Shown: positions 32,529 to 63,625, counted from the stretch's first letter. The stretch is DNA of 64,000 nucleotides from Gemmatimonadales bacterium (GCA_036741715.1 DAINRR010000005.1:25203-89202); one strand, 5' to 3'. Program-made: numbers and translations. The notes: generated from the sequence alone by a model not told the origin.

Positions 32529-34820
32529 ATGAGCACCTCCCCCGCAATCCATCTCAGGCTCTTCGGGAGCCCCTCGCTCGAGCGGGAGGACGGGAGTGTG
32601 CTCGCAGGGCGCGCCGCCCAGCGGCACCGCCTCGCCCTCCTCGCCCTCCTCTCGCTCGCCCCCGGTCATCGCATCAGCCGCGACAAGCTCATGGCCTGGC
32701 TCTGGCCCGAGGCCGACGGCAAGCGTGCGCGCAATCTGCTCAACGTCTCGACGCATGTGCTGCGCGGCGTTCTCGGCGAGACCTCGATCGTCTCGGCGGG
32801 TGAGGACCTGCGACTGGATGTGGCCGCGGTGCGGCCGGACGTGGCCGAATTCGAGCGCGCGATGCAGGCGGGAGACGAGGAGAGCGCGGTCGCACTCTAT
32901 CGCGGACCGTTCCTGGACGGGTTCTTCCTCCCCGAGGCGGAGGAGTTCGACCAGTGGAGCGGCCGGGAGCGACAGCGGCTGGCCGATATATATGGAAAGG
33001 CACTCGAGGGTCTGGCCGAGCGGGCCGAAGCCGCCGGTGACTTCGGCACCGCGGCCGTGCGGTGGCGCGCGCGGGCGGCGCACGATCCGCTGGATTCGCG
33101 CGTTGCCCTTCGCCTGATGCGGGCGCTCGATGCCAGCGGAAATCCGGCGGCCGCGATTCAGCACGGGGCGGCGCATGCCCGCCTCCTGAGCGAGGAACTC
33201 GGCTCGAGCGCCCCCGAAGTCACCGCCCTGTCTGACCACCTTCGCCGCCATCCCCGGCCCCATCCGTTCCCGGAACGGCCCGTCATCGGCAGCCCGGCGT
33301 CGGAAGCGCCGACACCCGTGCCGGCGCACGAGGCCCCTCGGCCGCGGCAGCTTCCATTCCCCCGCTGGGCAGCCGCTGCAGCCCTCGCCGTCGTCGCGCT
33401 GTCGTTCACTGCCTGGCTCGCCGTTGCCGGCGCGCCCGCGGCCGATCCGTCGATCGTCGTCCTGCCGTTCGCGAATCTCGCGCCCGGCGCGGCCCCCGAT
33501 TATCTGAGCGACGGGCTCACCGACGAGATCATCGCCGGCCTGGCGACCGTCCCGCGACTCACCGTCATCGCGCGCAATTCCGCAGACCGCTATGCGAGCT
33601 CCGTGGCCACCCTTCCGGAGATCGCACGCGAGCTCGGCGTCTCGCATGTGCTCCATGGCACGGTCCGCCCGGAGGGAGGCCAGGTACGGGTCACGGCGCG
33701 TCTCGTCGCGGCCGAGCGGGAGCGCGTCGTGTGGGCGCAGACGTACGATGCGCGCGAGGGGCAGCTCGCGCGGATTCAGGACGACATCGGGCGGGATGTC
33801 GTGCGCGCGCTCAAGCTCGAGCTGGTGGGGGACAGCGCGCCGGCGCAGCGGGGCACGCGCAATCCAGAGGCGTACGAGCTCTACCGCCGGGGACGGTTCC
33901 ATTGGGCCACGCGCACCCGCGAAGGTCACGAGGCGGCCATCGCCTATTTCGAGCGCGCGATCGCCCTCGATTCGAACTACGCGGATGCGTACGCGGCGCT
34001 CGCCGACGCCCACCTCACGAGCCGGCGGCTCGGCATGAGCCCGCACTCGGAGGAGGAAGCCCAGGCGCTGGTGACGCGCGCCGCGGAACGGGCGCTCGCG
34101 CTCGACGACGCATCGGCCGACGCGCACAACGCCTTCGCCAACGTCCTCTGGTGGCAGAAGAACTGGCCCGGCGCGGAGCGGGAGCTCCGGCGCGCACTCG
34201 AGCTCAACCCGAACCATGCCGGTGCGCACAACTTCTATGCACTCCTCCTCCACGGCATGGGCCGCCAGCAGGAAGCGCTGAGCGAGGCCCGGCGCGCCGC
34301 CGAGCTCGATCCGTTCGCGATGATGGTCGTCATGACCTACGGCTTCCTGTGTTACGTGACGGACGACCTGGAGTGCGCGATCGAACAGTTCGACCGGGTG
34401 GTCGAGCTGAACCCCGCATGGGGAATCGCCCTGCGCCGCAAGGCGATCGTACAGGCCATGCTGGGGCAGCACGCCGAGGCGCAGGCGAGCATTCGCCAGG
34501 CTCATGAAGTCGAGCCGGACAATGCGTACGGGCTCATCGATCGCGCGATCGTTCTCGCCCTCGCCGGCGATACCGCCGCTGCGCGAGCCGCGCTCCGGGC
34601 TGCGGAAGGCGCCACGGGATCGACCGTCGACTTCAATCTCGCGCGGGCCTACACCACCCTCGGCGACCGGGACAGCGCCTTCGCGGCCCTCGAGCGCTAC
34701 GATGGCTGGCTCTGGCCCGGCGTCAGCGCGCTCGCCGAGCCGCTGTTCGATCCGATCCGCACCGATCCGCGGTTCGTGGCGCTGGAAGACCGGGTGCTGC
34801 GGGAAATGGGCGTGAGGTAG
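32529..34820 (+). CDS. SARP/BTAD-family transcriptional regulator: winged-helix + BTAD + TM + periplasmic TolB_N-like + TPR domains
   Basis: 'LRLFGSPSLE...QRHRLALLALLS...SRDKLMAWLWPE' is the OmpR-type wHTH. 'FERAMQAGD...YRGPFLDGF...EFDQWSGRERQRL' is the BTAD. One TM segment is AAALAVVALSFTAWLAV. 'VVLPFANL...LSDGLTDEIIAGL' and TPR repeats follow. Confidence 0.9.
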   Translation: MSTSPAIHLRLFGSPSLEREDGSVLAGRAAQRHRLALLALLSLAPGHRISRDKLMAWLWPEADGKRARNLLNVSTHVLRGVLGETSIVSAGEDLRLDVAAVRPDVAEFERAMQAGDEESAVALYRGPFLDGFFLPEAEEFDQWSGRERQRLADIYGKALEGLAERAEAAGDFGTAAVRWRARAAHDPLDSRVALRLMRALDASGNPAAAIQHGAAHARLLSEELGSSAPEVTALSDHLRRHPRPHPFPERPVIGSPASEAPTPVPAHEAPRPRQLPFPRWAAAAALAVVALSFTAWLAVAGAPAADPSIVVLPFANLAPGAAPDYLSDGLTDEIIAGLATVPRLTVIARNSADRYASSVATLPEIARELGVSHVLHGTVRPEGGQVRVTARLVAAERERVVWAQTYDAREGQLARIQDDIGRDVVRALKLELVGDSAPAQRGTRNPEAYELYRRGRFHWATRTREGHEAAIAYFERAIALDSNYADAYAALADAHLTSRRLGMSPHSEEEAQALVTRAAERALALDDASADAHNAFANVLWWQKNWPGAERELRRALELNPNHAGAHNFYALLLHGMGRQQEALSEARRAAELDPFAMMVVMTYGFLCYVTDDLECAIEQFDRVVELNPAWGIALRRKAIVQAMLGQHAEAQASIRQAHEVEPDNAYGLIDRAIVLALAGDTAAARAALRAAEGATGSTVDFNLARAYTTLGDRDSAFAALERYDGWLWPGVSALAEPLFDPIRTDPRFVALEDRVLREMGVR

Positions 34821-34832
34821 CCGCAGCACCAC

Positions 34833-35708: not shown

Positions 35709-36596
35709 TCAGTCCCCCCGCGATGCGAGAAGCCGCTCCACCCCGCCGATCCCTCCATCGCCCCGCCACTCGAGCCGGCCGTCAGGCCCGAGCACGAAGA
35801 CCGTGGTCGCATGGTCCACGTCGCCGGTCGTCTCGTTGCGCCGCCGCGCGACCCCGAGGCTGTCGAGGACGGACTCGACGTCCTCGACCGTGCCGGAAAG
35901 AACGCGATCATTGGGACCCAGTTCCCAGTGCCGGGCCAGTGAGACCAGGCGCTCGGGGGTGTCCCGCCAGGGGTCGAGCGTGACGACGATGAGTGCGACG
36001 TCGGGGCGGTTCGAGCGCCGGCGGGCGGCACGGAGGTCGTTGACGACCAGCGGGCAGACCGTGGCGCAGTGGCCGAAGGCGAAGGTGACGAGTGCGGGAC
36101 GGCCCCGCCACTCCCCCAGGGAATAGCGCCGTCCATGCTGGTCCACCAGCCGGACGCCCGGCGCCTCGTGCTCGGCCGGACGCAGCGTGGCGAGATCCGG
36201 CGCGTACGCGACCCGCCCGCCTTCCCACGCCCGCGCAACACGCACACCGAGTGTGAGGGTGCCCACGACGGATGCCGCCGCCACGGTCAGTCCCGCGATG
36301 CGACGCCAGGGCGAAGCCCCCAGCCACGCCAGGTCGCGCCGGAGCCCGCGATTCCCGATGGCGAGGAGCATCCCGAGCATCCCGAAGGGCTCGCCGATCA
36401 GGATGATCCAGCCGCGCGTGTCCGGCAGTCCGCCCCGTTCCGATCCGAAGCACGCGGCGCGCGTCCGGGTAAGCCACTCCGGCTCCGCGGTCGCGGGCCA
36501 GAGCGCGAGCGCCCACCACGCTGCGGTGATCACGAGGATCGCCACGAGTGCGGTGAGCGCGAGCCCGGGCCGCTCGTCGCGGCCCGTCGCGTCCAT
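35709..36596 (-). CDS. SCO1/SenC-family copper chaperone fused to an N-terminal 3-TM domain
   Basis: Thioredoxin-fold block 'ALVTFAFGHCATVCPLV' (CxxxC) and 'DHATTVFVLGPDG'. Its ATG overlaps the subunit I stop by 1 nt (TGATG at 36594-36598). Confidence 0.85.
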   Translation of the reverse strand: MDATGRDERPGLALTALVAILVITAAWWALALWPATAEPEWLTRTRAACFGSERGGLPDTRGWIILIGEPFGMLGMLLAIGNRGLRRDLAWLGASPWRRIAGLTVAAASVVGTLTLGVRVARAWEGGRVAYAPDLATLRPAEHEAPGVRLVDQHGRRYSLGEWRGRPALVTFAFGHCATVCPLVVNDLRAARRRSNRPDVALIVVTLDPWRDTPERLVSLARHWELGPNDRVLSGTVEDVESVLDSLGVARRRNETTGDVDHATTVFVLGPDGRLEWRGDGGIGGVERLLASRGD

Positions 36597-38344
36597 CAGC
36601 CGATTCTCCAGAGGAAGCTCAGCAGCTTCCAGTTGGTGAAGTAGTAGAGCATGAAGGCGAGGAAGAAGATGCCCACGAGCACGAGCGTGCCGGGCGTCGG
36701 GCCGGCCCAGCCGCGCGCGGGGGCGTGCAGCTCTTCATTGAGCGCATCGGCGCCCGGGCCGTGCACTGGCGGGTTGGTGAGCCCCTGGGGAATACCGCGG
36801 ATCGGCTTCCCGCGCGGGAACTCGGTCACGCGCTCGCCAAAGAACACCGACGTGACCGCGATCAGGATGAAGGCGAAGGCCCCCGTCGCCGCGATGACGC
36901 CGCCGATTCCGACCATCGCCATGAAGAGGTCCACCACCGGGCTGAACGGCACGTCGTGCGCCGACTGCGCAAAGCTGATGTCCCAGTGCCGGCGCGGGAC
37001 GCCGAAGCTGCCGGCGAACGTCATGCCGAACTCGAGGAGCAGCAGCCCGCCGGCGAACAGGTACGGCTGGATCTTCGCGAGCCCCCAGAACGCCACCTTC
37101 CGCTGGAAGATGAGCGGCAGGAGGTAGTAGGTCGCGCCCATGAAGGCCACGGCCGTGCCGCTCACCACCGTCGCATGGAAGTGGCCCGGAATGCGCAGCG
37201 TGTTGTGCGCGATGATGTTGATCTGCTCGGTGCCGATCGTGACGCCGGTGATCCCGCCGAAGAAGCCGAACACGACGACCGAGAGCACGAGCGACGAGAA
37301 GCCGGGGTCGCCCCAGGGCGCCTTGCGCAGCCACTCGAACAGTCCCTTCGTGTACCCGCGCAGTCGCATGCCGAGCTCGAGCCCGGCCGGCACCGTGAAC
37401 CCGTGGATCATCGACGCCAGCACCGCCATGTACATGAAGTAGGAGGTGTTGACGATCTTCCACGCCGGCCCGAAGCCCGGGTCCACGAGGAGGTGGTGCG
37501 CCGAAGCCATCGAGATGAAGAGGATGTAGAGCACGAAGGCCCATCGGCTCACCTTCTCGTTCAGCACGACCGCACCCACGGTGAGCGCACCCAGCATGTA
37601 CCAGATCGCCACCATCGCCGCGACGTTGATCTGCTGGGCCGAGTGCCCGAGCCCCCACCAGAGGAGCCGGTACATCTGGGGATTGACGCTGTCGACGAGG
37701 CCGATGGACCAGAGGAAGGTGGGGATGTAGACCATCGCCCCATGGAGCAGCGTGATGACGGCGATGATGGCCGCGGTCATCGCGCCGTAGACGACGAGCG
37801 GCATCGATCCTTCGTACGTCCGCTCGCGCTTCGCGATCGTGAGCGTCACGAAGAACTGGCCCACGACGCTCAGCGCGCCGACGGCGAAGAGGATGATGCC
37901 GAGATAGAAGAGCGGGTGCGCCTTGAGCGGCGGATACGAGGTGTAGAGCACGTCCGCCTTGCCGCTCCACTGCATCGCCTCGACCATCAGCGACCCGACC
38001 ACCATCAGCCCGAAGTTGAACCAGCCGTACCGCGGTGCCGCGGGTCGCGCGTTGAGCAGCACCGTGGCCGCGAACCAGAGCACCGCCATCTCGAAGAAGA
38101 TGATGAAGAAGATCAGCATGTTCATCCCGTGCACGCCGAGAATGCGGTAGTACCACTCGGCGGGCAGGAGATGGATCGCCTGCCAGCGGGTCAGCGCGAG
38201 GAGCAGGGCCGCAACGGCGCCGATCAGGAGCGCCACCACCGACACCACGGCGTTCGCGCGGATGAGGCGCTCCGCCTGCAGGTCGATGCGCCGGGTCGTG
38301 ATCGGGCAGGTCCGCACGGGGCGCTCGAGGGCCGTCGTGGTCAC
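36596..38344 (-). CDS. heme-copper oxidoreductase subunit I, ba3 (B-family)-like but lacking the helix-VI cross-link tyrosine
   Basis: Start is GTG 38344 (GGAGG 6 nt upstream), overlapping the subunit II stop (GTGA). Blocks 'YYRILGVHGMN', 'VLYTSYPPLKAH', 'LWWGLGHSAQQ', 'SAHHLLVDPG', 'NTLRIPGHFHATV' run collinear with ba3 subunit I. The track ORF 36596-39004 over-extends the N-terminus. Confidence 0.9.
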   Translation of the reverse strand: MTTTALERPVRTCPITTRRIDLQAERLIRANAVVSVVALLIGAVAALLLALTRWQAIHLLPAEWYYRILGVHGMNMLIFFIIFFEMAVLWFAATVLLNARPAAPRYGWFNFGLMVVGSLMVEAMQWSGKADVLYTSYPPLKAHPLFYLGIILFAVGALSVVGQFFVTLTIAKRERTYEGSMPLVVYGAMTAAIIAVITLLHGAMVYIPTFLWSIGLVDSVNPQMYRLLWWGLGHSAQQINVAAMVAIWYMLGALTVGAVVLNEKVSRWAFVLYILFISMASAHHLLVDPGFGPAWKIVNTSYFMYMAVLASMIHGFTVPAGLELGMRLRGYTKGLFEWLRKAPWGDPGFSSLVLSVVVFGFFGGITGVTIGTEQINIIAHNTLRIPGHFHATVVSGTAVAFMGATYYLLPLIFQRKVAFWGLAKIQPYLFAGGLLLLEFGMTFAGSFGVPRRHWDISFAQSAHDVPFSPVVDLFMAMVGIGGVIAATGAFAFILIAVTSVFFGERVTEFPRGKPIRGIPQGLTNPPVHGPGADALNEELHAPARGWAGPTPGTLVLVGIFFLAFMLYYFTNWKLLSFLWRIG

Positions 38345-38946
38345 AGGGCACCTCCATGCTCGATGCCGGCCGGCTTGTCGGCCACGGTGTTCCCGACCGA
38401 GTCCACCACGATCACGCGGCCCACCATCGTGTGGTGGCCGATCCCGCAGAACTCGTTGCAGATGATGCGGAAATCGCCGGACGAGGTGGGCGTCACGCGC
38501 AGGGCGTAGTCGAAGCCGGGCACGACGGCGAAGTTGATGTTCAGCGGATAGAGCGAGAAGCCGTGGTTCACGTCGAGCGCGGAGAGGTGGAGCATGTACT
38601 CCTTCCCCTGCTCGAGCTGCAGGATCGGATACCACTGGTAGGTGAGCCCCACGAGATAGACATCGGCGCCCGGCGGCGGCGCGGCGATCGGCATGCCGGC
38701 GTCGGTGCCGATCTCGTACTGCTTCGCGAACTCCACCGTGCGCTGGTAGAAGGCGCGGGGCTCCACGCGGCTCCGGACGCCGGCCGGATTCTGTCCCCCC
38801 TTCCAGTGCCAGAGCGGCATCATCGCGAAGAGCACGATGCACCAGGCGAACGCGATCGAGACCCAGATCCGCTCCGCCTTGTGCGCCGGTTTCCACCACA
38901 CGCCCGGGACCGGATCGATACCGGTATGGACCTTGGTCAGCGGCAT
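38341..38946 (-). CDS. heme-copper oxidoreductase subunit II with CuA centre
   Basis: One TM segment (IWVSIAFAWCIVLFAMMPLW). CuA ligands are 'DVNHGFSL' and 'ICNEFCGIGHHTM' (C-x-E-x-C-G-x2-H-x2-M). GGAGAA lies before the ATG. Confidence 0.9.
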   Translation of the reverse strand: MPLTKVHTGIDPVPGVWWKPAHKAERIWVSIAFAWCIVLFAMMPLWHWKGGQNPAGVRSRVEPRAFYQRTVEFAKQYEIGTDAGMPIAAPPPGADVYLVGLTYQWYPILQLEQGKEYMLHLSALDVNHGFSLYPLNINFAVVPGFDYALRVTPTSSGDFRIICNEFCGIGHHTMVGRVIVVDSVGNTVADKPAGIEHGGAL

Positions 38947-39635: not shown

Positions 39636-41228
39636 TTGCGCAAGACCCTCGTGCGAATCCTTGAACGCGGTGCCCGACGCCTCCTCGGCGCTCTCGACGC
39701 CGGCGCCACCCGTGCCTGGGGATGGCGCTGGAATCCGCTGCACCAGAGCGGCACCATCGCCGTCGCCATGCTGCTGGCGCTCCTGGCGACGGGCATCTAC
39801 CTCGTCTTCGTCTATCGCGTCGGCGCTCCCTCCGCGTCCGTGGCTCGCATCGCCGCCGACCCGTGGCTCGGCGGCTGGATCCGGAGCCTGCACCGCTACA
39901 CGTCCGATCTCTTCATCGTCGCCGCGGCGCTCCACTTCCTCCGCATGTTCGCGCAGGCACGAAGCTGGGGCCCGCGCCGGCTCGCGTGGATCTCGGGTCT
40001 GATGCTGCTCGGCGCCGGCCTCGTCTGCGCCTGGACCGGCTTCGTGATGGCGTGGGACAGCTTCGGCGAGCGCCTCGCGCGCGAAGGGGCGCGGCTGCTC
40101 GACCTGCTCCCTGTGCTGTCGGAACCGCTGAGCCGCCTCTTTGCGGGAGACCGGCCGCTGCCGGACGCGTTCTTCTTCGTCAACCTCTTCGTGCACATCG
40201 GGCTGCCGCTCGCGATGGGAGCCCTCCTCTGGCTGCACGTCTCGCGCGTCGCGCGACCGGTGCTGCTGCCGCCGAAGCGCATCACGTGGACGATCCTCGC
40301 GGCGCTCACGGTCACCGCAGTGCTCCTTCCTGCCCCGCTCGGTCCGGCAGCCGATCCGTTCCGGCTTCCCTTCGACACGCCGACCAATCTCTTCTCCGCC
40401 TGGTGGCTGCCGTTCACCGAGCGGATGTCGCGCGGCGCCGTGTGGGGCGTCGGGCTGGGCCTGTCCGTCGCGCTCCTGCTCGTGCCGCGATTCACGCGGC
40501 GGCCGCGCGTCGAGCGCTGGGCGCCGAGCGTCGTGGATCCGCGGCTCTGTACCGGGTGCAACCAGTGCCCGCAGGACTGTCCGTGGGATGCGATCACGAT
40601 GGTCGAGCGGGACGACGACCGCCCGTCGCTCGTGGCGCTCGTGAATCCGGCGCGCTGCGTGAGCTGCGGCATCTGCGCCGGCTCCTGCCCGCCGATGGGC
40701 GTCGGGCCCCCGGGACGTACCGGGCGGGATCAGCTCGCTGCGGCGCGGGTGGTGATCGGTGCGGGGCTCGGGGACGCGGGGCGCGAGGGGGTGGGGGCGG
40801 GCAGTATCGTCGCCATCTGCTGCAGCATGGCGCCCGATTCCCATGTGGTGGCCCTCCGCGAGCGTGGCGCACACGTCCACCAGGTCACGTGCGTCGGCAA
40901 TCTCCATTCGTCGGTCGTGGAGACGTTCGTGCGGAGCGGCACGCCGGGAGTGGTGATCTGCGGTTGCCCGCCGCGCGACTGCGTCGGCCGCGAGGGGCCG
41001 AAGTGGCTGCACGAGCGCCTGTTCAACGCGCGCGAGGCCGAGCTCAAGCCGCGGGTCGATCGCCGGCGCGTCCGGACACTGACGCTCGCGCCGGGCGCGC
41101 GCGGCGAGGCACTTGCCGGGTACGACGCCATCGCACGCGATTTCGCGGCGCTCGATCTGCCGGGCGCCGAGCAGGTCGAGCCGGATCTCGTGTGCGTTCC
41201 GGTGCCGCTGGAGGAGGAGGATCGATGA
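39636..41228 (+). CDS. fusion protein: di-heme cytochrome b (N-terminal domain type) + 2x[4Fe-4S] ferredoxin + MvhD/FlpD-like domain
   Basis: Heme ligand pairs are 'SLHRYTSDLFIVAAALHFL' and 'FVHIGLPLAMGALLWLHV' (each H-x13-H). Two further TM segments follow. Then come 'CTGCNQCPQDCP' and 'CVSCGICAGSCP', then 'IVAICCSMA...VTCVGNLHSSVVETFVRSGTPGVVICGCPPRDC'. The start is uncertain (TTG 39636; GTG 39651 is possible). Confidence 0.85.
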   Translation: MRKTLVRILERGARRLLGALDAGATRAWGWRWNPLHQSGTIAVAMLLALLATGIYLVFVYRVGAPSASVARIAADPWLGGWIRSLHRYTSDLFIVAAALHFLRMFAQARSWGPRRLAWISGLMLLGAGLVCAWTGFVMAWDSFGERLAREGARLLDLLPVLSEPLSRLFAGDRPLPDAFFFVNLFVHIGLPLAMGALLWLHVSRVARPVLLPPKRITWTILAALTVTAVLLPAPLGPAADPFRLPFDTPTNLFSAWWLPFTERMSRGAVWGVGLGLSVALLLVPRFTRRPRVERWAPSVVDPRLCTGCNQCPQDCPWDAITMVERDDDRPSLVALVNPARCVSCGICAGSCPPMGVGPPGRTGRDQLAAARVVIGAGLGDAGREGVGAGSIVAICCSMAPDSHVVALRERGAHVHQVTCVGNLHSSVVETFVRSGTPGVVICGCPPRDCVGREGPKWLHERLFNAREAELKPRVDRRRVRTLTLAPGARGEALAGYDAIARDFAALDLPGAEQVEPDLVCVPVPLEEEDR

Positions 41229-41848
41229 TCCGAAGCGCCGGCCGGAGCATCGCGACGATCGTCGTCAGCGCGGCCGCCGCGATGGGTATTGCCGCCGGAT
41301 CGGGGGTCGCGGTGCCGTACCACGCCGATGACGCCGCGCGCCTCCGGCTCTCATGGAGCGCGCGGCCGGAGCGGATCGAGCAGTGCCGCACGCTGTCCGA
41401 AGAGGAGCTCGCGCTCCGGCCGGAGCACATGCGCCAGCGCATCGAGTGCGAGGGCGGCTTCGCGACCTACGCGCTGGCGATCGCGATCGACGGCCGGCGG
41501 GTCGACGAGGCGGTGCTCCTGGGCGGCGGTGTTCGCAACGACCGGCCGATCCACGACCTCAGGGACCTCGATGTCTCGCCCGGCCGGCACCGGGTGCAGA
41601 TCTCACTCACGCGGCGCGAGGCCGATGCGTCGGGAGACGAGGACGACGATGAGGATGACGACGACGATGCCGGCATCTCCGCCGACCGCGCGCAGCGCGA
41701 GCGGACGGAGCGCACGCGCCGCCAGCGCGCGGCGCTTCCGGCGGCGGTGACGCTCGATACGACGATGGTGCTTGAGGCCGGCCGGGTCGCGGTCATCACC
41801 TTCGATGCCGGGCGGCGCAGCTTCATGATCGTGCCGGGTGCGCCCTGA
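41225..41848 (+). CDS. membrane-anchored hypothetical protein with poly-acidic insert
   Basis: ATG 41225 overlaps the stop of the cytochrome b fusion (ATGA). N-terminal anchor is IATIVVSAAAAMGIAAG. Acidic run is 'SGDEDDDEDDDDDAG'. This is only the last 207 codons of track ORF 39722-41848. Confidence 0.65.
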   Translation: MIRSAGRSIATIVVSAAAAMGIAAGSGVAVPYHADDAARLRLSWSARPERIEQCRTLSEEELALRPEHMRQRIECEGGFATYALAIAIDGRRVDEAVLLGGGVRNDRPIHDLRDLDVSPGRHRVQISLTRREADASGDEDDDEDDDDDAGISADRAQRERTERTRRQRAALPAAVTLDTTMVLEAGRVAVITFDAGRRSFMIVPGAP

Positions 41849-43807
41849 GCTCGCCAACTTCGCCAGCCGGAACGCCACGACGTAGTCCCCTTCCCCGAAC
41901 GGCCCCCCTCCCCCGACCGCGATCGCCACGAACTGCTCGCCGGTCGCGAGCTGCCACGTCATCGGCGTCGCCTTCCCGCTCTCGGGAAGCGGGCCGCGCC
42001 AGAGCTCGCGTCCGCTCTCGATGTCGTACGCCTTGAGCGAGCGATCGAGCGCTGCGCCGATGAAGACCAGGCCACCCGCCGTCGTGATCGGGCCGCCGAG
42101 GTTGATCGAGCCCCAGTCGGGCGGCAGCGGTGTGCCCTCCGGAACCAGGCGCTCGAGCGAGCCGAGCGGGACCGTCCAGCGATGCTTTCCGGTGTCGAGA
42201 TCGATCGCGACGAGCGCGCCGAACGGGGGCGGGGTGCACGGAAGGCCGGATGGCGCGCGCAGCAGGCGCCGCCGCATCACGTACGGCGTCCGGCTCATGA
42301 TGTTGTATTCGTAGCCCAGGCCGAGCCGCTCGCTCTCCGCCTCCGCCGCGTCGAAGTCCACCGACTCGCGCGGAAGCAGCTGCACTTCGGCCGCGATGCG
42401 ATTGACGGGCACGACGGCGATCCGCCGCACCGGGTCCCACGCGAGCCCGCCCCAGTGCGCGCCGCCGATGTTGGACGGCATGACGAGCGTGCCCTGGGTG
42501 TCCGGAGGCGTGAAGATCCCCTCGTTCCGGAGCGGCGCGATCATGGCGCGACAGGCCGCACGGTCCGCCTCGGCCGCGCCCCAGGCGTCGTCGGCCGTGA
42601 AGGCGTGCGGACTGAGCGGCGCGATGCCCGTCGTGAACGGCTGCGTCCGCGACGCCTCCTCACCGGGGATCCGGCTTGCCGGCACGGGGCGCTCTTCGAC
42701 GGGAAAGAGCGGCTCGCCGGTTTCGCGGTGCAGCACGAAGAGCATGCCGGTCTTCGTCGCCTGCAGCACGGCGGGGACCTCGACGCCATCGCGCACGAGC
42801 ATCACGAGCGCAGGCGGGGCCGCGTTGTCGTAGTCCCAGAGATCGTGGTGCACGCTCTGGAACGACCAGACGCGCTTGCCGGTCGAGGCGCGGAGTGCCA
42901 CGAGCGAGTTGGCGTAGCGGTTGTCCCCGAGCCGGAGCGCCCCGTAGTAGTCGGGCGCGGCGCTGCCGGTCGGAATGAAGACGAGATCGCGCTCGGCGTC
43001 CGCCACCAGGACCGACCAGGCGTTGGCTCCGCCGGTTCCGTGCGCGAGCTTGCCGCGCCAGTCGCCGAAGGCGGGGTCGGCCGAATCCTGCGGAATCGGG
43101 TCCCAGCTCCAGCGCAACGCGCCGGTGCGCGCGTCGTACGCCCGCACCTCGCCGCTCGGCAGGTCGGGGCGGGTGTTGTCGCCGATCGACGAGCCGGTGA
43201 TCACGAGATCGTTCACGACCGCGGGCGGCGACGTCATCGTGTACGCCGCCGGCTCGAACGGCGCGATGCGGAGGCCGCGCGTGAGGTCCACGATGCCGTT
43301 CTCACCGAACCGGCGGCAGACCGACCCGCTCGCCGCGTCGAGCGCGATGAGCTGCGACTGCGCGGTCGCGACGAAGATGCGGCGGCGGCACGGCGCGCCG
43401 CTTGCCGCCTTCGGATCCACCCACAGCGATACGCCGCGGCTCGCGAAATCTCCATAATCGACATCGCGGCGGATCTTCGGGTCGTAGACCCACCGTTCGC
43501 GGCCCGTCGCGGCGTCGAGCGCGATCACCCGGCCGAGCGGCGTGCCGATGTACATCAGACCCTCGTGCACGAGAGGCGTCGCCTCGAAGGAGGCAGGGGT
43601 CGACGTGGCGTAGGCGGGCCCCGACTCGCCCGTGCGGTACGTCCATGCGACGTGCAGGCGAGTCACGTTCTCGCGAGTGATCGCGGCCGCGGGCGAGTGG
43701 CGCGTGCCGCCGGCGTCGCGACCGTTCGCTTCCCAGCCGATTTCCTGCGCGGCGGCGGACGCGTTGACGGTGATCAGGGCGGCCGCGAGAGTGATCAGGC
43801 ATTTCAC
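41603..43807 (-). CDS. PQQ-dependent dehydrogenase (quinoprotein glucose/alcohol dehydrogenase family), secreted
   Basis: Propeller blocks are 'TRHSPAAAITRENVTRLHVAWTYRTG', 'EATPLVHEGLMYIGT', 'GANAWSVLVADAERDLVFIPTGSAAPDYYG', 'SVHHDLWDYD', 'GGAHWGG', 'LKAYDIESGRELW'. Start set to GVG-type GTG 43807 ((M)KCLITLAAALITVNASAAAQE, GGAGCG upstream). The track start is 43852. The last roughly 86 codons (41606-43863 region end, i.e. 41606-41863) are a doubtful extension; see findings. Confidence 0.85.
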   Translation of the reverse strand: MKCLITLAAALITVNASAAAQEIGWEANGRDAGGTRHSPAAAITRENVTRLHVAWTYRTGESGPAYATSTPASFEATPLVHEGLMYIGTPLGRVIALDAATGRERWVYDPKIRRDVDYGDFASRGVSLWVDPKAASGAPCRRRIFVATAQSQLIALDAASGSVCRRFGENGIVDLTRGLRIAPFEPAAYTMTSPPAVVNDLVITGSSIGDNTRPDLPSGEVRAYDARTGALRWSWDPIPQDSADPAFGDWRGKLAHGTGGANAWSVLVADAERDLVFIPTGSAAPDYYGALRLGDNRYANSLVALRASTGKRVWSFQSVHHDLWDYDNAAPPALVMLVRDGVEVPAVLQATKTGMLFVLHRETGEPLFPVEERPVPASRIPGEEASRTQPFTTGIAPLSPHAFTADDAWGAAEADRAACRAMIAPLRNEGIFTPPDTQGTLVMPSNIGGAHWGGLAWDPVRRIAVVPVNRIAAEVQLLPRESVDFDAAEAESERLGLGYEYNIMSRTPYVMRRRLLRAPSGLPCTPPPFGALVAIDLDTGKHRWTVPLGSLERLVPEGTPLPPDWGSINLGGPITTAGGLVFIGAALDRSLKAYDIESGRELWRGPLPESGKATPMTWQLATGEQFVAIAVGGGGPFGEGDYVVAFRLAKLASSGRTRHDHEAAPPGIEGDDRDPAGLKHHRRIERHRRRKRRALAARALRPLALRAVGGDAGIVVVILIVVLVSRRIGLAPRE

Positions 43808-43824
43808 GAATGCACGCTCCGGTC

Positions 43825-44754
43825 TCAGTGCAGAGGCTTCTCGTAGCGCCACACCGTGATCGCCACGATCCCTTCAGGCGTCGTCAGGTTGCTCACGACC
43901 TCGCCCGTCCGGCGCCATCCGCTCTTCTCGTAGAAACGGGCGGCGCGATGGTTGCCGATGGCGCAGTCGAGCCACGCCACGGTGAAACCCCGCGCCACGA
44001 GCTGCCGTTCCGCGTCGGCGATGAGCGCGGAGGCCACGCCGGCGCCTCGGGCGCGGGCCGAAACGTAGAGCTGGTTCAGCTCGCCACCCTTCAGCATGTG
44101 AAACCCGCGCGGATCGCGGGGCGGGCCGGCAACGCGGACATCCGATAGGGCCGCCGAGAGGCGTTCCGCGAACCGCTCCGGGGTACGATCGCGCTTCAGC
44201 TCCTCGGGGAGGATGGCAGCGTGGGCATCCTGCCAGCCGTCGAACCAGAGGGCGGCCAGGGGCTCGATGTCAGCGGGGCTCGCGTCGCGGACGGCGACGC
44301 TGCCCTCGACGAGTCGCGCCAGCTTCCCCAGCGACAGCCGCCAGCCGAGCTCGTTGTCGGCCGGCGACAATCCGGAAGGAAGCCCGGCGTGGACAGCGAC
44401 GAGCTCGGTCCCGCCATCCCGATCGGCGAGCGAGAACGTCACCGTCATTTCGCCCTGCATCGTCGGATCCTGCGTTTCGAACTCGACGGTGTGCACGACC
44501 CGCTCGCCGGGCACGAGCTCGAGGTAGCGCCCGTGCCAGGTATCGGTGTGTGCGGTGGTCTTTCCCGCCGGCCCGGGCTCGTCATAGGTGAGCGAGACGC
44601 GGATCCGCCCGCCCGCGCGCGTATCGAGCTCGTGCACTTCGCTCGACATGCCGTCGGGGACCATCCAGGCGCGCAGCGACTCCGCCTCGACGAGGGCGCG
44701 GTAGACGGCGCTGCGCGGAGCGGCAATATGCCGGATGAGGCGAGTCGATGACAT
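43825..44754 (-). CDS. fusion of SRPBCC/AHSA1-like domain and GNAT acetyltransferase domain
   Basis: The N-terminal half has 'RHIAAPRSAVYRALVEAESLRAWMVPDGM...VTFSLADRDGGTELV'. The C-terminal half has 'LYVSARARGAGVASALIADAE...NHRAARFYEKSGW'. Start is ATG 44754 (the track uses TTG 44760). Confidence 0.85.
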   Translation of the reverse strand: MSSTRLIRHIAAPRSAVYRALVEAESLRAWMVPDGMSSEVHELDTRAGGRIRVSLTYDEPGPAGKTTAHTDTWHGRYLELVPGERVVHTVEFETQDPTMQGEMTVTFSLADRDGGTELVAVHAGLPSGLSPADNELGWRLSLGKLARLVEGSVAVRDASPADIEPLAALWFDGWQDAHAAILPEELKRDRTPERFAERLSAALSDVRVAGPPRDPRGFHMLKGGELNQLYVSARARGAGVASALIADAERQLVARGFTVAWLDCAIGNHRAARFYEKSGWRRTGEVVSNLTTPEGIVAITVWRYEKPLH

Positions 44755-44763
44755 CGGCAACTC

Positions 44764-46860
44764 TCACTCGAGATTCATCGCGCGCATCAGCGCCTGGAAC
44801 CGCGGATGCTCGCGGAGCGGCACGAAGAGAAACGATCCCTTGATGCTGTAGGTCGGTCCCGTGCGATCGGCAACCGCCCGCTCGAGGTAATCGAGCGCCC
44901 GGTCCGGTTCACCGAGGCCGGTGTGGATGTAGGCTAAATGGTATGGCGAGACGAACTCCCGCCCGGCGCGCTCCTCGAGCTCGCGGAGGAGCGCGCGCGC
45001 TTCCGCGACCCGGCCATCCATGCCGAGCATTTCCCCGAGCTGCGCGACCCAGAGCGGCGTCCGCGCCGAGCATTCGACGGCCCGCTCCAGCTCGGCGATG
45101 CCGCCTTCGCGGTCGCCGGTGAGGAAGCGGGCCCAGCCGAGGGTTGCGCGGGCGCGCGGGTGGTCCGGCTCGACCTCGACGACCTGCCGGACGTTCACGA
45201 GCGCCTCATCATACCGCCCGGCGCGGAGGAGCATCGTGGACATGTCCGTTCGATTCGCGGCCGGATCGAGCTCCTGCGCCTGCCGGCCGAGCGGGATCGC
45301 TTCCTCGAACCGGCCCGTCGCCCAGCAGAGGCGCGCCAGAAGATCGATCGCGTACCCGCTGCCGGGGCTCAGCTCGACGGCGCGCCGCAGCCCCGCCTCG
45401 GCCGTGCGCCAGTCGAAGTCCGCGACCATCCTCAGGTAGCCCCGGGTGGCGTGCGCGTCGCTCAGGTCGGGCGCGAGCTCGAGGGCGCGCGCCGCGGCGA
45501 CGGTGGCGCACGCGAAAAGCTCCTTGGTCGGCCTCGCCGCCAGCTCCGCAAGCTCGACGAACGTCATCGCGAGGAGCGAGTGCGCGAGGGCGAATCCGGG
45601 ATCTCGCGCGATCGCCGCCCCGAGCAGCGTCACGGCGCGCTCCATTTCGGGCGCCGTGAACTGGATGAACGCCTGCCGGCCCCGGAGGAAGAGGCGGTAC
45701 GCCTGGATGTCCTGCGTCGGCTCCGCGCGCACGCGGCCCCGCTCGTCGGGGGAGAGCTCGGCCCGGAGCGCGGCGGCGATCTGCAGCGCGAGGTCGGTCT
45801 GGATCGCGAAGATGTCGCTGATCTCGCGATCGTAGGTCTCGCTCCAGAGGGGCCGCCCCGACGCCGCATCCAGGAGCGTCGCCACGACGCGCACGCGATT
45901 CCCCGCATGACGCACGCTGCCATCCAGGACGGTCCGGACGCCGAGCGCCGCGGCGATCTCCCCGACCGGTCGGTCGCGGGAGCGGAACGGCATGACGGAC
46001 GATCGGGCGATGACGCGCAGCGACCGGATCTTCGAGAGATGCGCAATCACGTCCTCGGTGACGCCGTCGGCGAAGTACTCCTGCTCGCCGGCGCCTCCGA
46101 GACCGAGGAACGGCAGCACCGCCACGGATGGCATCGGGGCCGCCGCCGCGGGGGCGCGGCGCAGCTCGTCGGCAAGCGCCTGCACCGCGGGCTCGGGCGG
46201 AAGTTCGAGGTCCTTCCGCACGCGGTGTGCGTGATCCGCGGCATGACGGAGCGCGGCAGGACGGTCACCCCCGGCGTCGAGGGCGCGCATGAGGCGGCAG
46301 GCGTGGTGGGCGGAGTGCGGATCGAGTGCGGCCAGCCGGCGGGCCGCAGCGAGGCGCGCAGCGATGTCGCCCGACCGCTCCGCGGCGTCGCCGGCCGCGA
46401 CAAGGATGCGCGCGTATTCCGCGGCGAGCTGGCTCCGCCGCGCATCGAGCCACTGCATGAACTCGGACGACTCGGGGAGATGGAACCCCTCGAGGAGCGT
46501 GCCGGCGTACGCCTGTGTGGCGGCTTCCGCATCGCGGGCGGCGAGCGCGGCGCGGAGCTCGTGGAAGTCGCACTGGACGCCGGCGGGCTCGAAGACGAGA
46601 CCATCCCCTACCGACCGGATGACCCCTTCGCCGAGCGCGCCGCGGAGAACGTGGACGGAAAGGTTGAGGAGCCGCCGGGCGGCCGCATCGTCGCGCTCGG
46701 GCCAGAGGAGTGCGAAGGCGCGATCGCGGGCGAGCGGCCGCGGCCAGGCGTCAATGACGAGCGTGAGGAGTGCAACGCGGTGGCGCTGCGACGGCGGGCC
46801 GCTCAGCACCGTGTCGCCGGCGCGGAGGCAGGCCCCGCCGAGGAGGGAGATCGCAATCAT
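44764..46860 (-). CDS. SARP/BTAD-family regulator with periplasmic TolB_N-like and TPR domains (paralogue 2)
   Basis: wHTH 'QRHRVALLTLVIDAWPRPLARDRAFALLWPE', BTAD 'FHELRAALAARD...YAGTLLEGFHLPESSEFMQWLDARR', then 'VAVLPFLGLGG...FADGVTEDVIAHL' and TPR repeats. Confidence 0.9.
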   Translation of the reverse strand: MIAISLLGGACLRAGDTVLSGPPSQRHRVALLTLVIDAWPRPLARDRAFALLWPERDDAAARRLLNLSVHVLRGALGEGVIRSVGDGLVFEPAGVQCDFHELRAALAARDAEAATQAYAGTLLEGFHLPESSEFMQWLDARRSQLAAEYARILVAAGDAAERSGDIAARLAAARRLAALDPHSAHHACRLMRALDAGGDRPAALRHAADHAHRVRKDLELPPEPAVQALADELRRAPAAAAPMPSVAVLPFLGLGGAGEQEYFADGVTEDVIAHLSKIRSLRVIARSSVMPFRSRDRPVGEIAAALGVRTVLDGSVRHAGNRVRVVATLLDAASGRPLWSETYDREISDIFAIQTDLALQIAAALRAELSPDERGRVRAEPTQDIQAYRLFLRGRQAFIQFTAPEMERAVTLLGAAIARDPGFALAHSLLAMTFVELAELAARPTKELFACATVAAARALELAPDLSDAHATRGYLRMVADFDWRTAEAGLRRAVELSPGSGYAIDLLARLCWATGRFEEAIPLGRQAQELDPAANRTDMSTMLLRAGRYDEALVNVRQVVEVEPDHPRARATLGWARFLTGDREGGIAELERAVECSARTPLWVAQLGEMLGMDGRVAEARALLRELEERAGREFVSPYHLAYIHTGLGEPDRALDYLERAVADRTGPTYSIKGSFLFVPLREHPRFQALMRAMNLE

Positions 46861-61082: not shown

Positions 61083-63389
61083 TCAGCGCACCGCCATCTC
61101 CCTGAGCACCCTCTCCTCGAGCGCCGCGAACCGCGCATCCCCGCGCACCGGATCGAAGATCGGATCCGCGAGCAGGCCACGGTGCGGCCACTTCCAGTCG
61201 TCGTACCGCTCGAGCGCCGCGAACGCACTGTCGCGCTCGCCGAGTGCGATCCAGGCGCGAGCGAGGTCGAACGCGCTCGTGCGCCCGATCGCACGCTGCA
61301 GCGACGCGCGCGCGGCCGTGGAATCACCGGCCCGGGCCTGGACGATGGCAAGCTCGGCCTGGGCATAGCCGGCTTCCGGCACGAGGCCAAGGACCCTGCG
61401 CATCGCCGCCTCCGCCTCGACGTGCCGTCCGCGCATCGCCTCGGCCATGGCGAGGTACCGGATGGCCTGCACGTATTGCGGGTCGAGCTCGAGCGACCGG
61501 TCGAGCTGCTCGACCGCGCAGCTCCAGTCGCGCACCAGATAGCAGTGCCATCCCCAGCTCTTCACCATGACCACGGCGAACGGATCGAGTTCGGCCGCTC
61601 GGCGTGCCTCCTGCAGCGCTTCGTCCTCACGCCCCATGGCGGCGATCAGCTGGGCGAGCCAGTTGCGCGCGCGGGCGTGACCCGGCGTGAGTTCGACGGC
61701 GCGCCGGAGCTCACGCTCCGCGCCCGGCCAGTTCTTCTGCCACCAGAGCGACATCGCAAAGGAGGTGTGCGCATCCGCTGACGCAGGATCGAGCGACAGC
61801 GCGCGCTCGGCCGCGCGCGTCATCTGCACACGCACTTCCTCTTCCGACAACGCAGTCGCCCCATGGTGCCAGCCCGTCAGGTGGGCGTCGGCGAGCCCGG
61901 CGTAGGCGTCGGCATAGCCCGAATCGAGCGCCAGCGCGCGCTGGAAGTAGGCATGCGCCTGCCGGTGTCCCTCGATGGTACGCCTCGCCCAGTGGAAGCG
62001 GCCCTGCTGATAGAGCGCGTAGGCCTCGGGGTTGCGCGTCTGGCGGCGCACGAGGGTCCGTGTGCTGTCGCCCACCAGCCTGACTTCGAGGGCGCGTACC
62101 ACGTCGTGGGCGATCGCGTCGAGGACCGGCGCGATGCCGTCGACGCTCGCGTCGTACGAGCGCGCCCAGAGCACTCGCTCGCGCTCCGCCTGTACCAGCC
62201 GCGCCGTGACGCGCAGCTGGCCACCGTTCCGCTTCACGGTCCCGTGCAGCACGTGGGCGACCGCGAGCTCGCGCGCAATCTCCGGCAGCGACGCCACCGA
62301 GCTGCCATAGCGCTCGGCCGACTCGGGCGCGATCACCGTGAGGCCGGGAACCGTCGCGAGCCCCGCGATGATCTCGTCGGTGAGGCCGTCGCCCAGGGGA
62401 TTCGACGCGGCACCGGGCGTGAGGTCCGCGAACGGGAGGACGACGAGTGACGGGGCCGGCCGAGGCCCCTGCCAGAGCGACCAGGATACGAGCGCGAGCG
62501 CGAGGACTGCGAAAACCGCGACCGGAATCCGGCGGGACCGCGGCCTCCGCTCGGCCGGTTCCGGAAGTTCCGCTGGCTGCCCCCCGTCGTCCGGCAGCTC
62601 CGCGAGCGGCTCGCGGGCGCCGGCTCGGCGAGCCGCCCGCGGCGGGATGTCCGAGCGCGGCGCCGGGTCAGTGCGCAGCTGCTCCGCCTTCGCGGCGACT
62701 TCGGGCGCGGTGGTGCCCAACTCCTCGTCGAGCAGCCGCTCGTGCACGGCCGCATGCTGGATCGCGCCGGCGCGATTGCCGCTCGCCTCGAGCGCCCCCA
62801 TCAGCCGGAGGGCGATCTCCGAGTCGAGCGGATCGAATGCCGCGCAGGCGCGCCACCGCTCGATCGCCACGCGGAAGTCTCCCGCCGCTTCCGCCGCTTC
62901 CGCCATTCCCGCCAGACTCTTGCGATAGAGCCCGGCGAGCCGCTCCCGCTCTCGCCCGCTCCACTGGTCGAACGCTTCCGCGTCCGGGAGGAAGAACCCG
63001 TCGAGGAACGGTCCGCTGTAGATCGCAACGGCGGCATCCGGGTTGCCACCGGCCACTGCCGCCTCGAACTCGGACACGTCGGACCGGACGAGGGCGTCGT
63101 CGAGCCGGATGTCATCGCCGTGCGAGACGATCGCCGACCGTCCGAGCGCGTCCCTGAGCACGTGAATGGAAACGCTGAGGAGATTCCGGGCCCGCGGGCC
63201 GTCCACGTCCGGCCACAGCCAGCCCATCAGCTTGTCCCGGCTCATCCGGCGGTCGGGCACGAGCGAGAGGAGCGCGAGCAGGGCGATGCGATGCCGCTGC
63301 GCCGGCCGGCCCGATGCGGGAGTGCCATCGGGGAGCTCGAGCGACGGACTGCCGAGGAGTCGAAGGCGGGCCGGGCGGGACAGGGTCAT
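61083..63389 (-). CDS. SARP/BTAD-family regulator with periplasmic TolB_N-like and TPR domains (paralogue 3, closest to 32529-34820)
   Basis: Start trimmed to ATG 63389 (MTLSRPARLRLLGSPSLELPDG). Long stretches are near-identical to paralogue 1, for example 'GLTDEIIAGLATVP.LTVIA', 'LPEIARELxVxHVLHGTV', 'LRVTARLVxAERERVxWA'. Confidence 0.9.
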   Translation of the reverse strand: MTLSRPARLRLLGSPSLELPDGTPASGRPAQRHRIALLALLSLVPDRRMSRDKLMGWLWPDVDGPRARNLLSVSIHVLRDALGRSAIVSHGDDIRLDDALVRSDVSEFEAAVAGGNPDAAVAIYSGPFLDGFFLPDAEAFDQWSGRERERLAGLYRKSLAGMAEAAEAAGDFRVAIERWRACAAFDPLDSEIALRLMGALEASGNRAGAIQHAAVHERLLDEELGTTAPEVAAKAEQLRTDPAPRSDIPPRAARRAGAREPLAELPDDGGQPAELPEPAERRPRSRRIPVAVFAVLALALVSWSLWQGPRPAPSLVVLPFADLTPGAASNPLGDGLTDEIIAGLATVPGLTVIAPESAERYGSSVASLPEIARELAVAHVLHGTVKRNGGQLRVTARLVQAERERVLWARSYDASVDGIAPVLDAIAHDVVRALEVRLVGDSTRTLVRRQTRNPEAYALYQQGRFHWARRTIEGHRQAHAYFQRALALDSGYADAYAGLADAHLTGWHHGATALSEEEVRVQMTRAAERALSLDPASADAHTSFAMSLWWQKNWPGAERELRRAVELTPGHARARNWLAQLIAAMGREDEALQEARRAAELDPFAVVMVKSWGWHCYLVRDWSCAVEQLDRSLELDPQYVQAIRYLAMAEAMRGRHVEAEAAMRRVLGLVPEAGYAQAELAIVQARAGDSTAARASLQRAIGRTSAFDLARAWIALGERDSAFAALERYDDWKWPHRGLLADPIFDPVRGDARFAALEERVLREMAVR

Positions 63390-63625
63390 CGTGAATTGTC
63401 GGGAATGCGGGGATGATTCGACGTACCGTTTCAATGTACCGCGCCCGACCGCGCCCCGCTCGCGGCCGCGCGGCGACGCCGGCACACCCTGCCTAACACC
63501 TTCGCGCACACACACTTCGCTCAGGTGAAATCCAGGCGAAGCCGAGGTGAGCGCGCCTCGTAGCATTCCCTCGTCGGTCGACGGCACTTCCGCCGCCGCC
63601 CCGCCACCATCACGACGAGGGCACC

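Follow-up and report, generated by a model that had tools for sequence, protein, structure and literature searches.

The eNOR family of haem-copper enzymes reduces nitric oxide (NO) and not O2, as shown in Rhodothermus marinus (PMC11214002), and its published diagnostic is a Gln at the site of the cross-linked Tyr (PMC8756737). Enzymes of this type, long overlooked, are estimated to represent a large part of the NO reductases in the environment, and hence of N2O sources, and the only donor named in the main text of the eNOR paper is the artificial TMPD (tetramethyl-p-phenylenediamine)/ascorbate (PMC11214002). Here we analysed a 64,000-nucleotide stretch of DNA from a Gemmatimonadales bacterium (GCA_036741715.1 DAINRR010000005.1:25203-89202), hereafter the window, that encodes an eNOR-type cluster and, divergent from it, a protein in which cytochrome b, a two-[4Fe-4S] ferredoxin domain and an MvhD-like [2Fe-2S] domain are joined (hereafter the fusion protein). 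From sequence comparisons, the fusion protein and the 207-residue protein encoded next to it are probably a dedicated redox partner of the adjacent eNOR-type CuA haem-copper NO reductase.

Comparable genes were reported in Ferrigenium straubiae, where the eNOR operon comprises Sco1, haem o synthase, eNOR I/II and two cytochrome b plus Fe-S proteins, named 'Cytbc1CCC-like protein 2' (IMG 2878407323) and 'protein 1' (2878407319). Both of these proteins, eNOR I and Sco1 were present in the proteome table for denitrifying conditions, and the authors, who termed the genes 'rather unusual', proposed a supercomplex with eNOR and a quinol:NAD+ link (bioRxiv 10.64898/2026.01.22.701106). The idea presented here is partly anticipated by this one preprint. 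For the anammox and 'clade G' Rieske/cytochrome b complexes, it was proposed that quinol oxidation on the P side can push electrons into a cytoplasmic low-potential branch, and a hypothetical pre-Rieske bc ancestor discussed in the same work is among the three closest described cases (PMC5600118). A Chloroflexi member appears elsewhere as a table entry only, with an extra cytochrome c domain common to NirS/NirK fusions (PMC8756737). Our literature searches found no characterisation of this family.

A widespread and uninterrupted fusion gene

A preliminary description of the window, made from the DNA alone, had claimed a three-part fusion, and this was borne out by Pfam, by invariant residues and by an MvhD profile, which all agreed; every feature it listed was found where it had been placed (Table 1). 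Specifically, the Pfam domains Cytochrome_B (residues 37-202, 5e-14), Fer4_7 (305-352, 2e-8) and FlpD (412-486, 6.7e-7) all scored above their gathering scores. The component families (cytochrome b, subunit IV, di-cluster ferredoxin and MvhD) are all known, and the features of membership were found for each of them. An alternative start codon, GTG at 39651, lies five codons downstream of the first and yields a protein of 525 residues; it is the one used by public gene calls, which hold the identical protein (P0001).

The preliminary description had regarded the architecture as unusual. It is not rare, but belongs to a large family spread over many phyla: one database returned 2,129 relatives at E<=1e-5, of which the best 120 were full-length with the same domains, and a second contained 356 clusters (50% identity) with E<=1e-30 to the fusion protein. 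RefSeq and GenBank name such relatives generically or misleadingly, as 'hydrogenase iron-sulfur subunit', 'ferredoxin' or 'cytochrome b N-terminal domain-containing protein'. An annotation or sequencing artefact, in which two genes had been joined by a frameshift, has practically no chance of explaining the gene. The same uninterrupted architecture was seen in the 120 best of the 2,129 relatives, which come from independent assemblies, and on a RefSeq plasmid of a cultured strain, and we found no point in favour of such an artefact, which these data refute. The fusion protein and its 207-residue partner form a real, widespread and uncharacterised module.

A Rieske-less cytochrome b with a predicted Qo-type pocket

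The N-terminal region was a four-helix, di-haem core of the cytochrome b6 type, with 53 bits for PF00033 against a cut-off of 27.2. The two H-x13-H pairs noticed earlier were confirmed as H86/H100 and H187/H201, the haem ligands being paired as H86/H187 and H100/H201. Conservation was assessed in an alignment of 31 diverse relatives, down to 26% identity, in which the four His and the classical cytochrome b glycines G39, G53, G121 and G135 were invariant; W140-D141, the counterpart of b6 'PWDQ', was likewise invariant across aligned relatives. The Cys of the CxGG motif for haem cn was absent, with Q37 at the position of b6 Cys35 and S/T-G in the family (here S38-G39), and this lack excludes a b6f-like haem cn.

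Two further transmembrane helices had also been recognised in the preliminary description and are present, but their identity as helices E-F and the PEWY-like Qo motif had been missed. A profile of residues 206-292 matched only b6f subunit IV (5.2e-5) and residues 235-313 of bc1 cytochrome b (6.3e-5). The family motif 'p-i-D-W-F-Y-l-F-w-l-P' ('DWFY') aligned on the PEWY of the Qo site, and the preceding family 'A-D-L-L' on the 'P-A-N-P' stretch of cytochrome b. Pfam PF00032 (cytochrome b C-terminal) was undetected in the fusion protein, a caveat on a subunit IV membership that was otherwise evident. In Foldseek comparisons the AlphaFold2 model aligned over 285-325 columns with long bc1 cytochromes b and over ~180 columns with b6.

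Following the bH ligand H201, the protein reads VSRVARP, with a conserved Arg and no His at +5, either here or in the family consensus, and a Qi-site His was not recognisable in either sequence. Helices G-H of cytochrome b were lacking from the fusion protein. Additionally, a Rieske motif was absent at 87 of 88 loci, the sole match being ~5 kb away, and searches of the neighbourhoods for a Rieske or cytochrome c1 partner found none. These features identify the fusion protein as a Rieske-less cytochrome b with a predicted Qo-type pocket on the periplasmic side.

A cytoplasmic Fe-S relay

Two CxxCxxCxxxCP motifs, CTGCNQCPQDCP (residues 305-316) and CVSCGICAGSCP (341-352), supplied the eight Cys of a ferredoxin domain (PF12838), all of them invariant in the 31 relatives. 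This domain resembled the C-terminal ferredoxin domain of HdrA, and the Fe-S and MvhD part as a whole resembled the C-terminus of HdrA2 (1.3e-11). The MvhD-like domain scored 29.8 bits for PF02662 against a cut-off of 22.3, and a profile of residues 385-500 matched only MvhD chains in the PDB, nearly end to end (4.7e-17 to 4e-9). C396, C419 and C444 were invariant in the same relatives and C449 nearly so, and all four aligned on MvhD cysteines. Moreover, the AlphaFold2 model of this domain (predicted local distance difference test, pLDDT, 84-94) superposed on 5odc_D and 8rvu_F with TM-scores of 0.63-0.70 (Foldseek).

Six transmembrane helices, as originally proposed, agreed with hydropathy, the K/R distribution and the AlphaFold2 model; the K/R distribution placed the Fe-S/MvhD part, again as proposed, and also the N-terminus of the fusion protein in the cytoplasm. 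The result is a predicted membrane-spanning chain, [2Fe-2S] - 2x[4Fe-4S] - haem bH - haem bL, that ends at the periplasmic Qo-type pocket. A heterodisulfide-reductase-like partner for the MvhD domain, the kind that the preliminary description named as normal for such domains, was not found nearby, and neither was a hydrogenase; HdrA-type flavoproteins, [NiFe]-hydrogenases and formate dehydrogenases were all absent from the neighbourhoods examined.

Conserved linkage to an eNOR-type haem-copper enzyme

The best PDB relatives of haem-copper subunit I were ba3/B-family oxidases, and its counterpart of HPEVY is GHSAQQ, in which Gln replaces the cross-linked Tyr. The signature GH[SAP][SA]QQIN was present in subunit I at 72 of 73 loci, plus Defluviimonas. 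Having Gln for Tyr, the neighbouring oxidase is assigned by its active-site residues to the eNOR type. At the exceptional locus (P0261) subunit I keeps the Tyr (GHPLVYFW) and is a B-family oxidase, and P0270 likewise adjoins COX2 and COX1. Because the P0261 locus has a Tyr-type subunit I, the module would serve B-family-type CuA enzymes generally and eNOR predominantly.

A scan of one genome per GTDB species returned at least 558 stretches encoding a relative, and the best 80 loci (45-75% identity) were analysed; these came from Gemmatimonadota, Acidobacteriota, Myxococcota and Binatia. Nearly all of the long-enough contigs among them had a divergent SCO1-COX1-COX2 upstream and a homologue of the 207-residue protein downstream, and an Rrf2 gene lay between COX2 and the fusion in ~60% of the 80. 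In total, ~90 loci, distributed over at least 8 phyla or classes, had the pair beside SCO1 and a CuA-type haem-copper enzyme. Relatives at 26-37% identity retained haem-copper and SCO1 neighbours, mostly in one same-strand operon, COX2-COX1-(cyoE)-SCO1-fusion, and members related to this set were found in Bdellovibrionota and Nitrospinota. A copy with 33% identity was located on plasmid NZ_CP156080.1 of the cultured alphaproteobacterium Defluviimonas sp. SAOS-178_SWC, in the order small protein, COX2-like, subunit I, haem o synthase, SCO, fusion (WP_347309654.1), 172-residue partner (WP_347309655.1) and hemerythrin. The suspicion voiced in the preliminary description, that the gene downstream of the fusion and the haem-copper genes are partners, was supported by these conserved neighbourhoods, and SCO1, eNOR I, eNOR II, the fusion and the beta-sandwich protein constitute a gene set that is conserved across phyla and co-inherited. 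The only further recurrent neighbours were CtaA (12 loci), a CopD-like protein (10 loci) and a radical-SAM protein (7 loci), from a single-linkage clustering in which clusters were partly merged by spurious GC-rich open reading frames (ORFs).

The extent of this linkage bears on another possible function, a narrow form of the one in the preliminary description: that of a NarI/NarH-like redox loop which passes electrons from quinol to a cytoplasmic Hdr-like or other acceptor, or in the opposite direction, and is functionally unrelated to the haem-copper neighbour. A P-side quinol site, two b haems and cytoplasmic Fe-S clusters do resemble NarI-NarH, and the HdrA2-like C-terminus is in keeping with such a loop. 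Yet Hdr, hydrogenase or other cytoplasmic oxidoreductases were not conserved nearby, and the association with eNOR/SCO1 and the periplasmic partner persisted from 75% to 26% identity across phyla, making a loop of this kind very improbable.

Among distant relatives, hemerythrin genes occurred beside the module on the Defluviimonas plasmid (L092, 11056-11460) and at one further locus, and NnrS at one locus; L091 4898-5503 and L086 8310-9317 are the other coordinates belonging to this observation. Hemerythrin and NnrS genes are classically tied to NO/O2 sensing or stress, and as neighbours they fit an NO-related role of the cluster.

The downstream partner and its periplasmic domain

A homologue of the 207-residue protein was encoded directly downstream of the fusion in nearly all loci. 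In the window, its start codon lies behind a GGAGGAGGAGGA stretch. The protein had no Pfam or NCBIfam family and was annotated 'hypothetical' everywhere. In its AlphaFold2 model (pLDDT 88), an N-terminal transmembrane helix is followed by a beta-sandwich (residues 38-130), an acidic linker, one helix and three further strands, and the conserved residues were C54, H68-M69-R70, C75, G102, D106-R107 and G120. The fold had no significant match in the PDB, the best Foldseek E-value being 0.036, to generic beta-sandwiches. With neither a family nor a significant fold match, an identity as PCuAC/cupredoxin was rejected, and a weak match to the copper protein FtrA-P19 (probability 0.41) was not used.

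In many distant relatives of 650-790 residues, alignment placed a partner-like domain at the C-terminus of the fusion protein itself, and BLASTP of the partner against residues 587-693 of one of these (P0123) gave 1e-21. The beta-sandwich must lie in the periplasm, because a seventh transmembrane helix separates it from the cytoplasmic domain. In P0261 and P0270 the beta-sandwich is followed by a cytochrome c domain, which is consistent with this location. The chain described above is linked to a periplasmic domain at the level of the genes, and in many species the two are parts of one polypeptide.

SCO1 was the gene most tightly joined to the fusion, the stop codon of SCO1 overlapping the start of the fusion in L085, L086 and Defluviimonas and, frequently, among the distant same-strand operons. 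Such linkage would also be expected of a maturation factor, a haem-based counterpart of CcdA/DsbD-TlpA that supplies reducing power across the membrane for SCO1 and the beta-sandwich protein and is not an electron donor. Its tasks might be to keep the CxxxC thiols of SCO1/apo-CuA reduced, to convert Cu(II) to Cu(I), or to serve haem o/a synthesis. The two Cys and the His-Met retained by the partner, a plausible thiol or Cu(I) site, would suit this role, as would the haem o synthase, CtaA and CopD-like genes that recur at some loci. The relatives with fused cytochrome c, however, suit respiratory electron delivery and not chaperoning, the Ferrigenium proteome contained the proteins together with eNOR, and most CuA enzymes, including B-family oxidases, mature without a module of this kind. 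The lone SCO1-cytochrome b 'fusion' (P0245) looks truncated or frameshifted; because it ends after the ferredoxin domain with a homologue of the 207-residue protein just downstream, it is probably a frameshifted long-read contig, and it was set aside as Rosetta-stone evidence. We consider a role confined to maturation quite unlikely.

Antisense to the partner gene, a pyrroloquinoline quinone (PQQ)-dehydrogenase ORF (41603-43852, -) runs 83 codons beyond its likely end. Its tail (41603-41856, -) was compared with L004:12130-12252: the window and L001 read AAG TTG GCG, whereas the near-identical contig L004 has AAG TAG after a 1-bp indel and one substitution. This tail looks like read-through and not genuine protein, as a result of which the 207-residue gene was missed by gene callers on L001-L003.

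An Rrf2-family regulator and a shared operator

The gene divergent from the fusion encodes an Fe-S-type Rrf2 regulator, with the Cys triad C89-x6-C96-x5-C102. The preliminary description had called it 'NsrR-like', which held for the Rrf2 superfamily and the Cys triad; its score was far below the equivalog cut-off for NsrR (23.6 bits against 182), as it was for IscR (56 against 207), so that NsrR identity is unsupported at the equivalog level. It may act as an NO sensor.

The palindrome-bearing gap of 53 bp shared by the fusion and Rrf2 genes, also described before, was confirmed. When up to two mismatches were allowed, TTATCAT-N6-8-ATGATAA was found 11-120 bp upstream of the fusion at 32 of 47 Rrf2-adjacent loci and at 7 of 38 loci without an adjacent Rrf2, as against 6 occurrences in ~1.06 Mb of control DNA. 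This motif is lineage-specific. The palindrome is the probable operator of the Rrf2 regulator, and its recurrence at Rrf2-adjacent loci supports, as likely, the co-regulation that had been suggested on account of the shared palindrome; in this lineage, the gene set is predicted to be under an Fe-S-type Rrf2 regulator acting at a shared operator.

A different palindrome, TATGAC-N2-6-GTCATA, was seen ~50-100 bp upstream of the fusion in L021, L024, L027, L034 and L081. It was frequent in loci without an adjacent Rrf2 gene and suggests a regulator swap in the Acidobacteriota/Binatia-type loci. A sigma-70 promoter scan of the intergenic region found nothing, a result that is uninformative for this lineage.

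A proposed route of electrons to eNOR

The fusion protein is probably eNOR's electron-transfer partner, and we infer that the module delivers electrons to this enzyme. In the scheme that we propose, menaquinol would be oxidised at the Qo-like site, a step favoured because the whole Qo signature is conserved. One electron would leave on the periplasmic side for the CuA of eNOR, passing through or beside the beta-sandwich protein, and in some relatives this route may run via the fused cytochrome c; the cytochrome c-bearing variants (P0261 and P0270) support periplasmic electron output. The other would cross the membrane from haem bL to haem bH and on to the cytoplasmic Fe-S relay, from which MvhD would pass it to a cytoplasmic acceptor. 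This transmembrane branch is suggested by the lack of an evident Qi site and by the position of bH next to the ferredoxin domain, and the direction of flow within it is not fixed by sequence. Overall, the process would be a bc-complex-like branched oxidation of quinol without a Rieske protein or a Qi site. A connection of the quinone pool to a cytoplasmic relay, as in the preliminary description, is plausible; it leaves out the periplasmic/eNOR side.

The same cofactors might be used in the opposite sense, as an inside-to-outside wire of the NOX/FRE or MsrQ kind. A cytoplasmic reductant would load the [2Fe-2S] cluster of MvhD, and electrons would then pass along the pair of [4Fe-4S] clusters and the haems bH and bL, in this order, to the periplasmic side and the CuA of eNOR, giving a quinone-independent, Rrf2-switched removal of NO in which the Qo-like pocket would be a docking site or a structural relic. 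The cofactors form a linear chain across the membrane, and with no His five residues past its ligand, bH most plausibly contacts the Fe-S domain. Furthermore, the Ferrigenium paralogue has FAD- and NADH-binding domains in place of MvhD, as in NADPH-driven transmembrane reductases, control by an Fe-S Rrf2 protein suits a detoxification regulon, and in the fusion protein of the window N251 takes the place of the acidic Qo residue. Set against these points, the family-wide conservation of the PEWY-like, 'ADLL/PANPL'-like and W140-D141 motifs speaks for a functional quinol pocket, genes for a cytoplasmic donor are missing from the vicinity, and skipping the quinone pool would waste energy for a respiratory enzyme. 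On balance, a wire of this type appears somewhat unlikely.

Several observations weigh against the proposed delivery of electrons from quinol to eNOR. The Asn at position 251 (nt 40386-40388) replaces, at a PEWY-equivalent position, an Asp that is present in at least 90% of members and is also the consensus of 45 close relatives; the substitution is a one-nucleotide change of the GAC to AAC type and could change proton handling at the Qo-like site. The beta-sandwich of the partner has no recognisable redox cofactor site, and the acceptor of the 'first' electron is hypothetical for this reason, while a cytoplasmic partner for MvhD was not encoded near the fusion in the loci examined. The tight linkage to SCO1 could equally indicate a maturation role. 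The eNOR assignment is based on the active-site diagnostic, CuA and B-family similarity and not on phylogeny, and the AlphaFold2 model of the whole fusion protein is of moderate confidence (pLDDT 66).

A more far-reaching form of quinol oxidation by the module, which we put forward tentatively and think rather unlikely, is a Rieske-independent bifurcation at the Qo-type site. Here, NO reduction at eNOR, with its very high potential, would draw one electron out periplasmically, and a low-potential cytoplasmic carrier would be reduced via bL, bH and the Fe-S relay; this carrier might be ferredoxin-like, or NAD(P)+ for the FAD/NADH paralogue.

Other features of the window

In the SCO1/SenC protein, an unusually long N-terminal extension of ~140 residues apparently forms three hydrophobic helices rather than a single anchor. 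The 57-residue protein is possibly a small oxidase subunit, by analogy with subunit IIa of ba3, and on the Defluviimonas plasmid a similar ORF, of 60 residues, lies ahead of the COX2-like gene. The ORFs sampled elsewhere in the window included no further genes for respiration or denitrification. Three BTAD + TPR regulator-like paralogues (~700-880 residues) were present within 30 kb, at 32531-34822 (+), 44764-46860 (-) and 61086-63719 (-), two of which flank the eNOR cluster.

Table 1. Position and characteristics of the module, its domains and adjacent features (window coordinates).
Feature	Position	Strand	Characteristics
Fusion gene, cytochrome b + 2x[4Fe-4S] + MvhD-like [2Fe-2S]	39636..41228	+	530 aa, start TTG
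Four-helix di-haem cytochrome b6-like core, residues 33-206	39732..40253	+	PF00033 5e-14; PDB cytochrome b6 3.5e-14
Helices E-F + ef loop, residues 214-287	40275..40496	+	profile A5; homologous to b6f subunit IV / bc1 cytochrome b 235-313
2x[4Fe-4S] ferredoxin domain, residues 298-356	40527..40703	+	Fer4_7/Fer4; C305/308/311/315, C341/344/347/351
MvhD/FlpD-like [2Fe-2S] domain, residues 388-505	40797..41150	+	PF02662; C396, C419, C444, C449
Partner gene, 207 aa	41225..41848	+	overlaps fusion stop codon by ATGA; no known family
Perfect 9-4-9 palindrome TTTATCATG-CATT-CATGATAAA	39612..39633	.	putative operator of divergent Rrf2
Rrf2-family regulator, 147 aa	39139..39582	-	PF02082 3e-27
Single-TM (transmembrane) protein, 57 aa	38956..39129	-	no Pfam call; between Rrf2 gene and eNOR subunit II
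Haem-copper subunit II	38341..38946	-	full CuA motif H...CNEFCGIGHHTM
Haem-copper subunit I, B-family-like	36596..38344	-	PF00115 1e-62; ba3 structure alignment
SCO1/SenC copper chaperone	35709..36596	-	CATVC (CxxxC) motif, extended membrane N-terminus

Implications and comparison with known systems

The obvious candidate for a link between eNOR and the electron pools of the cell is this conserved, co-encoded module with its periplasmic partner, and the plasmid copy in cultured Defluviimonas makes the question of eNOR electron supply testable. The gene pair of fusion and beta-sandwich protein also makes a good marker by which to recognise, in genomes, eNOR loci now misannotated as 'cbb3-type' or 'cytochrome c oxidase'. 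If quinol is oxidised at a Rieske-less Qo-like site with an Fe-S relay, the assumed energy gain of this denitrification branch would change, and the module would offer an experimental model of bc-type complexes before the recruitment of Rieske (a scenario in PMC5600118). Bifurcation, if true, would add to denitrification a coupling site, for energy conservation or reverse electron transport, of a kind not known before, and would make the module a surviving example of the pre-Rieske bc ancestor that has been proposed.

Judging from its annotation, the Ferrigenium straubiae protein is a probable member of the family, whereas protein 1 of that operon has FAD/NADH domains in place of MvhD. What the Ferrigenium authors saw as rather unusual genes is, in the present data, a widespread companion of eNOR. 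The anammox and 'clade G' complexes are similar in that a small cytochrome b anchors a cytoplasmic Fe-S oxidoreductase (PMC5600118), but they keep the Rieske protein and separate FAD/NAD(P) subunits, while here the system is Rieske-less with ferredoxin and MvhD in cis.

With the cytochrome b of bc1/b6f, the fusion protein shares the di-haem four-helix core, the four His and four Gly, a 'PWDQ'-like W-D, the topology, and helices E-F with a PEWY-like motif and a 'PANP'-like stretch before it. It differs in that the module is without Rieske, cytochrome c1/f, the haem cn Cys, helices G-H and a recognisable Qi His, and in that its cytochrome b continues covalently into cytoplasmic Fe-S domains. Without a Rieske protein, haem cn or a recognisable Qi site, the module is not a bc1/b6f complex.

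MvhD/FlpD and the C-terminus of HdrA2 have the same four-Cys [2Fe-2S] fold after an HdrA-type di-cluster ferredoxin domain, and the Qmo complex, through QmoB and QmoC, likewise joins a cytochrome b in the membrane to Fe-S clusters and an MvhD-like domain, connecting quinones to redox reactions in the cytoplasm. In contrast to Mvh, Hdr and Qmo, the present system has no HdrA flavoprotein, hydrogenase or CCG-domain protein, its cytochrome b is bc-type and not NarI/HdrE-type, and its context is an aerobic/denitrifying haem-copper enzyme instead of anaerobic sulfur/methane metabolism; lacking HdrA and a hydrogenase, it is not an Mvh/Hdr system.

Finally, NarI-NarH and NapGH/NosGH are quinol-oxidising Fe-S membrane modules that are each dedicated to one terminal N-oxide reductase, and the proposed role of the present module resembles theirs. 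Their membrane part is unrelated in sequence to that of the fusion protein, their cofactors are arranged differently, and they serve another enzyme. The module described here is a cytochrome b-anchored Fe-S oxidoreductase, in this case Rieske-less, MvhD-headed and probably dedicated to eNOR.

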